Notes under the pieces: model-generated
Databases searched by the model: none
What the model was told of the DNA's origin: nothing
The model's input: the letters and a program-made list of their open reading frames with translations, nothing else
Origin: Escherichia phage vB_Eco_T-01
Reading direction: 5' to 3' (one strand)
Sequence record: PQ438391.1
DNA length: 64,000 nt
Program-made: the position numbers and the translations under genes
Shown: one piece after another, positions 17,355-18,934 of the stretch
How positions within the stretch are numbered: the stretch's first letter is position 1
How the letters are laid out: each line of letters starts with the position of its first letter

Positions 17355-18095
17355 ATGATTAGTGACTCTATGACAGTTGAAGAAATCCGTCTTCATTTGG
17401 GGCTTGCATTAAAAGAAAAAGATTTCGTAGTTGATAAAACTGGCGTTAAAACTATTGAAATTATTGGCGCATCATTTGTAGCAGATGAACCGTTTATTTT
17501 TGGCGCTCTTAATGATGAATACATTCAGCGTGAACTTGAATGGTATAAATCTAAAAGCTTGTTTGTTAAAGATATTCCAGGTGAAACGCCGAAGATTTGG
17601 CAACAAGTAGCATCTTCTAAAGGCGAAATTAACTCAAATTATGGCTGGGCTATTTGGTCAGAAGATAACTATGCCCAGTATGATATGTGTTTAGCTGAAC
17701 TTGGTCAAAATCCTGATTCTCGACGTGGTATCATGATTTATACTCGTCCATCCATGCAATTTGACTACAATAAAGATGGTATGTCAGATTTCATGTGTAC
17801 TAATACAGTACAGTACCTGATTCGTGATAAGAAAGTCAATGCAGTAGTAAGCATGCGCTCAAATGACGTGGTCTTCGGATTCCGTAATGATTATGCATGG
17901 CAAAAATACGTATTAGATAAATTAGTATCTGATTTGAATGCAGGCGATTCAACTCGTCAGTATAAAGCAGGTTCTATTATATGGAATGTCGGAAGTCTTC
18001 ATGTATATTCTCGTCATTTTTACTTGGTTGATCATTGGTGGAATACTGGCGAAACTCATATTGTGAAAAAAGACTATAAAGGTGAGTGGAAATGA
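17355..18095 (+). CDS. 42: dCMP hydroxymethylase gp42
   Basis: 246-aa ORF recognised as T4 gp42 (thymidylate-synthase-like fold). Confidence 0.95.
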   Translation: MISDSMTVEEIRLHLGLALKEKDFVVDKTGVKTIEIIGASFVADEPFIFGALNDEYIQRELEWYKSKSLFVKDIPGETPKIWQQVASSKGEINSNYGWAIWSEDNYAQYDMCLAELGQNPDSRRGIMIYTRPSMQFDYNKDGMSDFMCTNTVQYLIRDKKVNAVVSMRSNDVVFGFRNDYAWQKYVLDKLVSDLNAGDSTRQYKAGSIIWNVGSLHVYSRHFYLVDHWWNTGETHIVKKDYKGEWK

Positions 18096-18934
18096 TTCAA
18101 TTCGTAATTCCAAGTTATCAGCGTGTCGGGGCAGTTTCTGCCCTTGATATGTTTCCGACTGATTATGAACCCCATATTGTAGTGCGTGAACATGAAGAAA
18201 AAGCTTATCATGACGCCTATGGGTCTAGAGCTAAAATTATAACTATTCCTGATGATGTAAACGGAATTGCCGGTACTCGTAAAGCAATTACTGATATGTA
18301 TGCAGGTCAACGAATATGGATGATTGACGATGATACTACTATTCGTATGAGTTCAATGCGAAAAAGAGATGATCGTCGTTGTGTGGATAAAGTCAATCAA
18401 TTGACTCGTGAACAGTTCTATGAATTGATTCAATATGTTGAGGATGCCATGGATTGTGGGTATTATCATGGCCATGCTCGTCTACCTATTTTTAAAATTA
18501 CTTCATCTTGGGGTAATTATCGTGAAAATTCATATGGATTCACGAATACATGGTATGACCTCGGAAAACTTACGACAGAACAAATTGGGTATGGAAAAAT
18601 TGATTTATGCGAAGATATGTATGCATTTCTCAATTTAATTAATCAAGGTTATCCGCATTTGGCCTTGTTCAAATATCTAGTTGTATCTGGAAAAGCACAA
18701 GCTCCTGGCGGGTGCAGTTCAATTCGTAGTAATTCTAAACATAATAGAGCGCTTGAGCAGATTAATAGAGAGTTTCCAGAGCAAGCTCGTTGGAAAACTT
18801 CTAATATTGAAAAACGAAAATCGTTGGGTGAAGAAGACGAGCCATTAAAGGTTCTTCGCATGTGTGTTTCGCGCAAAGAAAAATCAGAAGCATTTCATAA
18901 GTTTAATGCTATTCATCCGATAGCAGTTGATTAA
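18092..18934 (+). CDS. putative DNA glycosyltransferase, GT-A type with DxD motif (candidate beta-glucosyl-HMC-alpha-glucosyltransferase)
   Basis: About 280 aa; IWMIDDD DxD motif; occupies the position where T4 carries beta-gt but is not T4 beta-gt by sequence; ATG 18092 overlaps the gene 42 stop. Confidence 0.65.
   Translation: MIQFVIPSYQRVGAVSALDMFPTDYEPHIVVREHEEKAYHDAYGSRAKIITIPDDVNGIAGTRKAITDMYAGQRIWMIDDDTTIRMSSMRKRDDRRCVDKVNQLTREQFYELIQYVEDAMDCGYYHGHARLPIFKITSSWGNYRENSYGFTNTWYDLGKLTTEQIGYGKIDLCEDMYAFLNLINQGYPHLALFKYLVVSGKAQAPGGCSSIRSNSKHNRALEQINREFPEQARWKTSNIEKRKSLGEEDEPLKVLRMCVSRKEKSEAFHKFNAIHPIAVD

Follow-up and report, generated by a model that had tools for sequence, protein, structure and literature searches.

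A gene very probably encoding a T2/T6-type beta-glucosyl-HMC-alpha-glucosyltransferase in Escherichia phage vB_Eco_T-01

Second-step glucosylation of phage DNA

The pathway that leads from hmC through alpha-glucosyl-hmC to gentiobiosyl-hmC is established (PMC6024577, PMC11078745, PMC13216743, bioRxiv 10.64898/2026.02.25.707755). The activity of the enzyme that adds the second glucose, encoded by ba-gt, goes back to biochemistry of the 1960s (as cited in PMC13216743). Also published are the distribution of the gene among the RB phages (PMC6024577), the syntenic replacement of beta-gt by TAGT (PMC13390438), and the GT-A assignment of the T6 TAGT together with its sister relation to GT2 (PMC13216743). 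The pair of alpha-gt and beta-gt found in T4 is rare, occurring in 6 of 753 GT-encoding phage genomes (PMC13216743). Alpha-gt together with TAGT is the usual state of Tequatrovirus (T4-like coliphages). The ba-gt genes of T2 and T6 were reportedly cloned by Winkler and Rueger in 1993. TAGT is not mentioned in the PNAS 2021 paper on phage TET, and a contingency-locus preprint was set aside because it concerns agt, not ba-gt.

The products of the pathway have been measured in several relatives. Gentiobiosyl-hmC amounts to ~5% in T2 versus ~72% in T6 (PMC6024577; bioRxiv 10.64898/2026.02.25.707755). When T6 is deprived of ba-gt, its DNA behaves as alpha-glucosyl-hmC only in Brig1 (PMC11078745) and BapA (bioRxiv 10.64898/2026.02.25.707755) assays. 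In ten Durham Tequatrovirus phages with alpha-gt and TAGT, gentiobiosyl-mdC was detected by HPLC/MS (PMC13390438). Seven of the ten, including Solly, contained approximately one-third 5-hmdC and two-thirds alpha-gentiobiosyl-mdC, and the remaining three contained hmdC, alpha-glucosyl-mdC, and gentiobiosyl-mdC at 1:2:2 (PMC13390438). TAGT in the Durham phages, Solly among them, is syntenic with T4 beta-gt (PMC13390438).

The ba-gt locus and its surroundings

We analyzed a 64,000-nucleotide stretch of the vB_Eco_T-01 genome (sequence record PQ438391.1), hereafter called the window. The window is from a Tequatrovirus; the closest records are ~97.6% identical to it, and none is identical. The gene order 43, imm.1, imm, 42, ba-gt, uvsX, 40, 41 is that of the T-even phages. 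The features on which the analysis relies are as follows (window coordinates; residue numbers are those of the ba-gt protein).

4899 to 6101, + strand: alpha-gt, DNA alpha-glucosyltransferase, 400 amino acids; makes alpha-glucosyl-hmC, the acceptor for ba-gt
17355 to 18095, + strand: gene 42, dCMP hydroxymethylase, 246 amino acids, from annotations under the nucleotide matches; makes the hmC precursor
18078 to 19023, + strand: segment of 946 bp with no nucleotide homology to T4 (blastn against the T4 locus)
18092 to 18934, + strand: ba-gt (ggt, TAGT), very probably beta-glucosyl-HMC-alpha-glucosyltransferase, 280 amino acids plus stop
18326 to 18334, + strand: DDD (D79 to D81), the DxD motif of the GT-A fold, read from the sequence as codons GAC GAT GAT
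18611 to 18616, + strand: E174-D175 in CEDMY; D175 is invariant in the homologue alignment
19012 to 20193: uvsX, downstream of ba-gt

The ba-gt reading frame runs on the + strand from ATG at 18092 to TAA at 18932 to 18934. A mechanical ORF list began this frame at GTG 18086 (282 amino acids); ATG 18092 is the start annotated for ba-gt in T2 and Solly. The stop codon of gene 42 and the start codon of ba-gt overlap as ATGA (18092 to 18095), and this overlap probably couples the translation of ba-gt to that of gene 42. The sequence GGTGAG (18081 to 18086), five bases 5′ of the ATG, is likely the ribosome-binding site. Residues 75 to 81 read IWMIDDD, confirming at 18092 to 18934 the ORF of about 280 codons with this motif that the preliminary description had placed between gene 42 and uvsX. 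The GC content of ba-gt (0.35 to 0.38) equals that of its flanks, and a recent foreign origin therefore has no compositional sign. A scan of 17200 to 19200 for sigma-70 promoters and terminators was no richer than shuffled sequence and returned nothing usable.

When the locus was compared with that of T4 by blastn, the block from 16901 to 18077, which includes most of gene 42, was 96% identical. Homology stopped at 18077, 18 bases short of the end of gene 42, and restarted at 19024, 12 bases into uvsX. Between these points, 946 bp therefore fill a slot that in T4 spans 1941 bp and holds beta-gt and segA. The encoded protein was described at first sight as having no resemblance to T4 beta-gt, and this held: the best BLASTP match between T4 beta-gt and the ba-gt protein had an E value of 2.2, the best tblastn match of T4 beta-gt to the whole window had an E value of 1.5, and the T4 beta-gt chain was absent among the PDB sequence matches of the ba-gt protein. 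In T4, the homing endonuclease gene segA lies between beta-gt and uvsX (L003:3557-5497), whereas the slot in the window has no segA. A tblastn search for SegA across the whole 64-kb window gave no significant match; T2 and T6 likewise lack segA. A remnant of T4 beta-gt or a copy of segA elsewhere in the window was rejected, as tblastn returned nothing significant.

The partner gene named in the preliminary description, alpha-gt at 4899 to 6101, is full length. Its product matched T4 alpha-gt (PDB 1xv5) with an E value of 1.5e-256, residues 1 to 400 being aligned (phmmer; also 1y6f and 1y8z), and its counterpart is annotated as alpha-glucosyltransferase in related genomes.

Other observations concern the surrounding intergenic regions. 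In the 77-bp spacer between ba-gt and uvsX, positions 18935 to 18958 (+ strand) read TGCCTAA, 11 nt, and TGT-TATAAT, a sequence that looks like a middle promoter with a MotA box and an extended -10. Lacking a -35 hexamer, this candidate promoter was missed by the sigma-70 scan. T2 and T6 have the same sequence over the aligned part of the spacer ahead of uvsX (to 18960). The interval from imm to gene 42 is filled by a strongly hydrophobic ORF of 49 amino acids (17198 to 17347, + strand; MKSKIITVLLLILMIIISIYY...), whose ATG overlaps the imm stop codon. Its protein is 86 to 94% identical in T6, T2, and T4, and no CDS is annotated for it in the three records examined (T2, T4, and T6). Between gene 43 and imm.1, a small ORF (16123 to 16551, + strand), whose product starts like a signal peptide or a transmembrane segment (MKIVMGCLAVCLVALAAVPF...), occupies the position where T2 annotates an extra 83-amino-acid hypothetical protein, T2_046. 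Nothing is annotated at this position in T4 and T6.

Family, alleles, and predicted fold of the ba-gt protein

Sequence comparisons indicate that 18092 to 18934 very probably encodes a beta-glucosyl-HMC-alpha-glucosyltransferase of the T2/T6 type (ba-gt, ggt; Pfam family TAGT). The protein matched phrog_842, "beta-glucosyl-HMC-alpha-glucosyltransferase," over its whole length (E = 8.7e-89). It also scored 41.3 bits with Pfam PF20691 (TET-associated glycosyltransferase, TAGT), above the gathering threshold of 27.5, with residues 3 to 207 corresponding to profile positions 2 to 205 of 205. By megablast, 474 phage records carry the gene (at least 90% nucleotide identity over at least 80% of its length), and many of these matches are annotated as ggt, ba-gt, or beta-glucosyl-HMC-alpha-glucosyltransferase.

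The window gene resembles ba-gt of T2 and T6 in its length of 280 codons, its position between gene 42 and uvsX, its ATGA overlap, and its partner alpha-gt, and differs from them by point changes only. Three of the 280 residues differ from T2 (R11H, H40Y, and P251S); three differ from T6 (H40N, D55G, and R106H), in addition to a stop codon in the T6 record. The TAGT of the Durham phage vB_Eco_Solly (OY720021) has the same synteny and a single difference, H40Y. The window protein is a mixture that shares R11 and P251 with T6 and D55 and R106 with T2, and residue 40 is variable (H in the window, Y in T2 and Solly, N in T6). The public T2 and T6 alleles are located as follows.

L001:4138-4980: T6 ba-gt, MH550421, homologous to window 18092 to 18934
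L005:2135-2974: T6 ba-gt, AP018814, homologous to window 18092 to 18934
L002:4295-5137 and L006:2283-3125: T2 ba-gt, two records, with R11H at window codon 11 (18122 to 18124)

Both T2 records carry P251S as well as R11H. The T6 record MH550421 has a TAG (amber) triplet at ba-gt codon 10, and its CDS is therefore annotated from M20 (261 amino acids); a product begun at M20 would lack the first beta strand. In the T6 record AP018814, one GAT is missing from GATGATGAT, which reduces DDD to DD and the protein to 279 amino acids. Because T6 is the classic example of a phage with 72% gentiobiosyl-hmC, these records reflect either altered stocks, tolerated or suppressed lesions, or errors of sequencing. 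In the window, the allele is intact.

No solved relative emerged from PDB sequence searches run with the protein alone or with a 9-sequence profile; the best profile match, the GT2 glucosyltransferase 9jma (E = 0.27), is suggestive only. The homologue search yielded 11 proteins, and the alignment used for structure modeling comprised 9 sequences with 32 to 77% identity to the query. With so few homologues, the alignment is shallow and the resulting AlphaFold2 model moderately confident (mean pLDDT 72, pTM 0.73; low-confidence segments at residues 129 to 140, 191 to 211, and 243 to 247). The best matches of the model were GT-A glycosyltransferases, interspersed with sugar nucleotidyltransferases that share their nucleotide-diphospho-sugar fold. 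The ba-gt protein is accordingly modeled with a single Rossmann-like, nucleotide-diphospho-sugar-binding GT-A fold, and the initial call of a DxD glycosyltransferase with this fold agrees with these matches and with the invariance of DDD.

Residues that do not vary among the aligned homologues, the most distant of which is 32% identical, include P7, S8, Y9, and R11 (P7-S8-Y9-x-R11), D79, D80, D81, and D175. D79-D80-D81 comes directly after model strand 74 to 79, and P7 to R11 aligns with the "PxYNR" nucleotide-binding motif of the GT2 enzyme 9jma. GT-A enzymes use a DxD motif for metal and nucleotide-sugar binding, and inverting GT2 enzymes use a catalytic base. By analogy, DDD 79 to 81 would bind a divalent metal and the diphosphate of the UDP-sugar, and D175 may be the catalytic base of an inverting, GT2-like GT-A enzyme. 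Inversion would be required to form a beta-linked product from UDP-alpha-glucose.

T4 beta-gt shares with the window enzyme the slot downstream of gene 42, the UDP-glucose donor, and a role in protecting hmC DNA. In contrast, the T4 enzyme (PF09198) is GT-B, whereas the window ba-gt is predicted to be GT-A, and the two have no sequence similarity. The acceptor of T4 beta-gt is bare hmC; that of the window enzyme would be alpha-glucosyl-hmC.

Expected DNA modification and its significance

In the proposed pathway, gene 42 would lead to hm-dCMP, which the phage polymerase would incorporate into DNA, and alpha-gt would then move glucose from UDP-glucose onto hmC in alpha linkage. Ba-gt, using DDD (79 to 81) for metal and UDP-glucose and an acidic base (probably D175), would put a second glucose on the first in beta-1,6 linkage, giving gentiobiosyl-hmC. 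Evidence by proxy, from the T6 ba-gt deletion (PMC11078745) and from mass spectrometry of Solly, whose protein differs by one residue (PMC13390438), supports the view that the window ba-gt would transfer glucose from UDP-glucose in this linkage to alpha-glucosyl-hmC in DNA. The T2/T6-type gentiobiosyl-hmC pattern put forward in the preliminary description is likewise supported by an enzyme nearly identical to those of T2 and T6 and by a full-length alpha-gt. Its extent is a separate matter: T2 and T6 differ widely in gentiobiosyl-hmC with near-identical enzymes, and gene presence alone therefore cannot fix how far diglucosylation proceeds.

We predict DNA of the T6 or Solly kind, with approximately two-thirds gentiobiosyl-hmC, one-quarter to one-third bare hmC, and little mono-alpha-glucosyl-hmC, because the protein carries no T2-specific change and is one residue from that of Solly. 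No beta-glucosyl-hmC would be expected. The Solly pattern comes from DNA measured by HPLC/MS, and that of the window phage is a prediction.

The same enzyme might instead act weakly in vivo and give a T2-like outcome, with ~70% mono-alpha-glucosyl-hmC and a few per cent gentiobiosyl-hmC. The protein of T2, a phage with ~5% gentiobiosyl-hmC, is three residues away and 99% identical (PMC6024577; bioRxiv 10.64898/2026.02.25.707755), and three Durham phages with TAGT are intermediate at 1:2:2, so that the extent varies among close relatives (PMC13390438). We nevertheless regard this outcome as unlikely. The window lacks the T2-specific R11H and P251S, a pair of changes that could explain the low value of T2 versus T6; R11, which does not vary even among diverged homologues, corresponds in alignment to the Arg of the GT2 "PxYNR" motif; and the protein is one residue from that of Solly, whose DNA is approximately two-thirds gentiobiosylated (PMC13390438).

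Very improbable is a TAGT enzyme of other specificity, one that would act directly on hmC or use another sugar, as "solitary" TAGT homologues may do. The family is functionally heterogeneous, with TAGT present but alpha-gt and beta-gt both absent in 288 of 753 GT-encoding phage genomes (PMC13216743), and remoter PF20691 members lie beside TET/JBP-like dioxygenases or alone and probably have other acceptors. Unlike these, the window member has gene 42 and alpha-gt as partners. It is also nearly identical to the T2, T6, and Solly enzymes at the same locus, and mass spectrometry of such phages finds gentiobiosyl-hmC and no beta-glucosyl-hmC (PMC13390438). Equally improbable is an allele with a pattern unlike those of both T2 and T6, in which bare hmC would be glucosylated too or diglucosylation would be nearly complete; no evidence points toward it, because residue 40 just varies between phages (Y, N, or H). 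That ba-gt is present yet inactive, as a decaying remnant, is scarcely credible: two public T6 records do carry lesions and loss-of-function alleles may occur in laboratory stocks, but the window ORF is full length, keeps all alignment-invariant residues, and retains the ATGA coupling to gene 42.

Our preferred reading is therefore a T2/T6-type ba-gt. The identity, family, fold, synteny, and partner genes of ba-gt were all addressed directly by the analysis, and nothing in the evidence gathered contradicts the identification. The preliminary description read a long-known gene correctly, and all that it inferred is already in print; the finding is ordinary and brings no new biology.

The suggestion that such a modification changes sensitivity to modification-dependent defense is documented in the literature. 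Loss of ba-gt makes T6 more susceptible to Brig1, and gentiobiosyl-hmC DNA resists Brig1 in vitro (PMC11078745). BapA releases no glucose from gentiobiosyl-hmC DNA or from wild-type T6 and deglucosylates T6 ba-gt-minus DNA (bioRxiv 10.64898/2026.02.25.707755). Gentiobiosyl-hmC DNA is still targeted by GmrSD and BrxU-type enzymes (PMC13390438, PMC13216743). The window phage can be annotated as belonging to the alpha-gt plus ba-gt (TAGT) modification type, which matters for annotation only; as a label, the modification type has predictive value in phage-host work.
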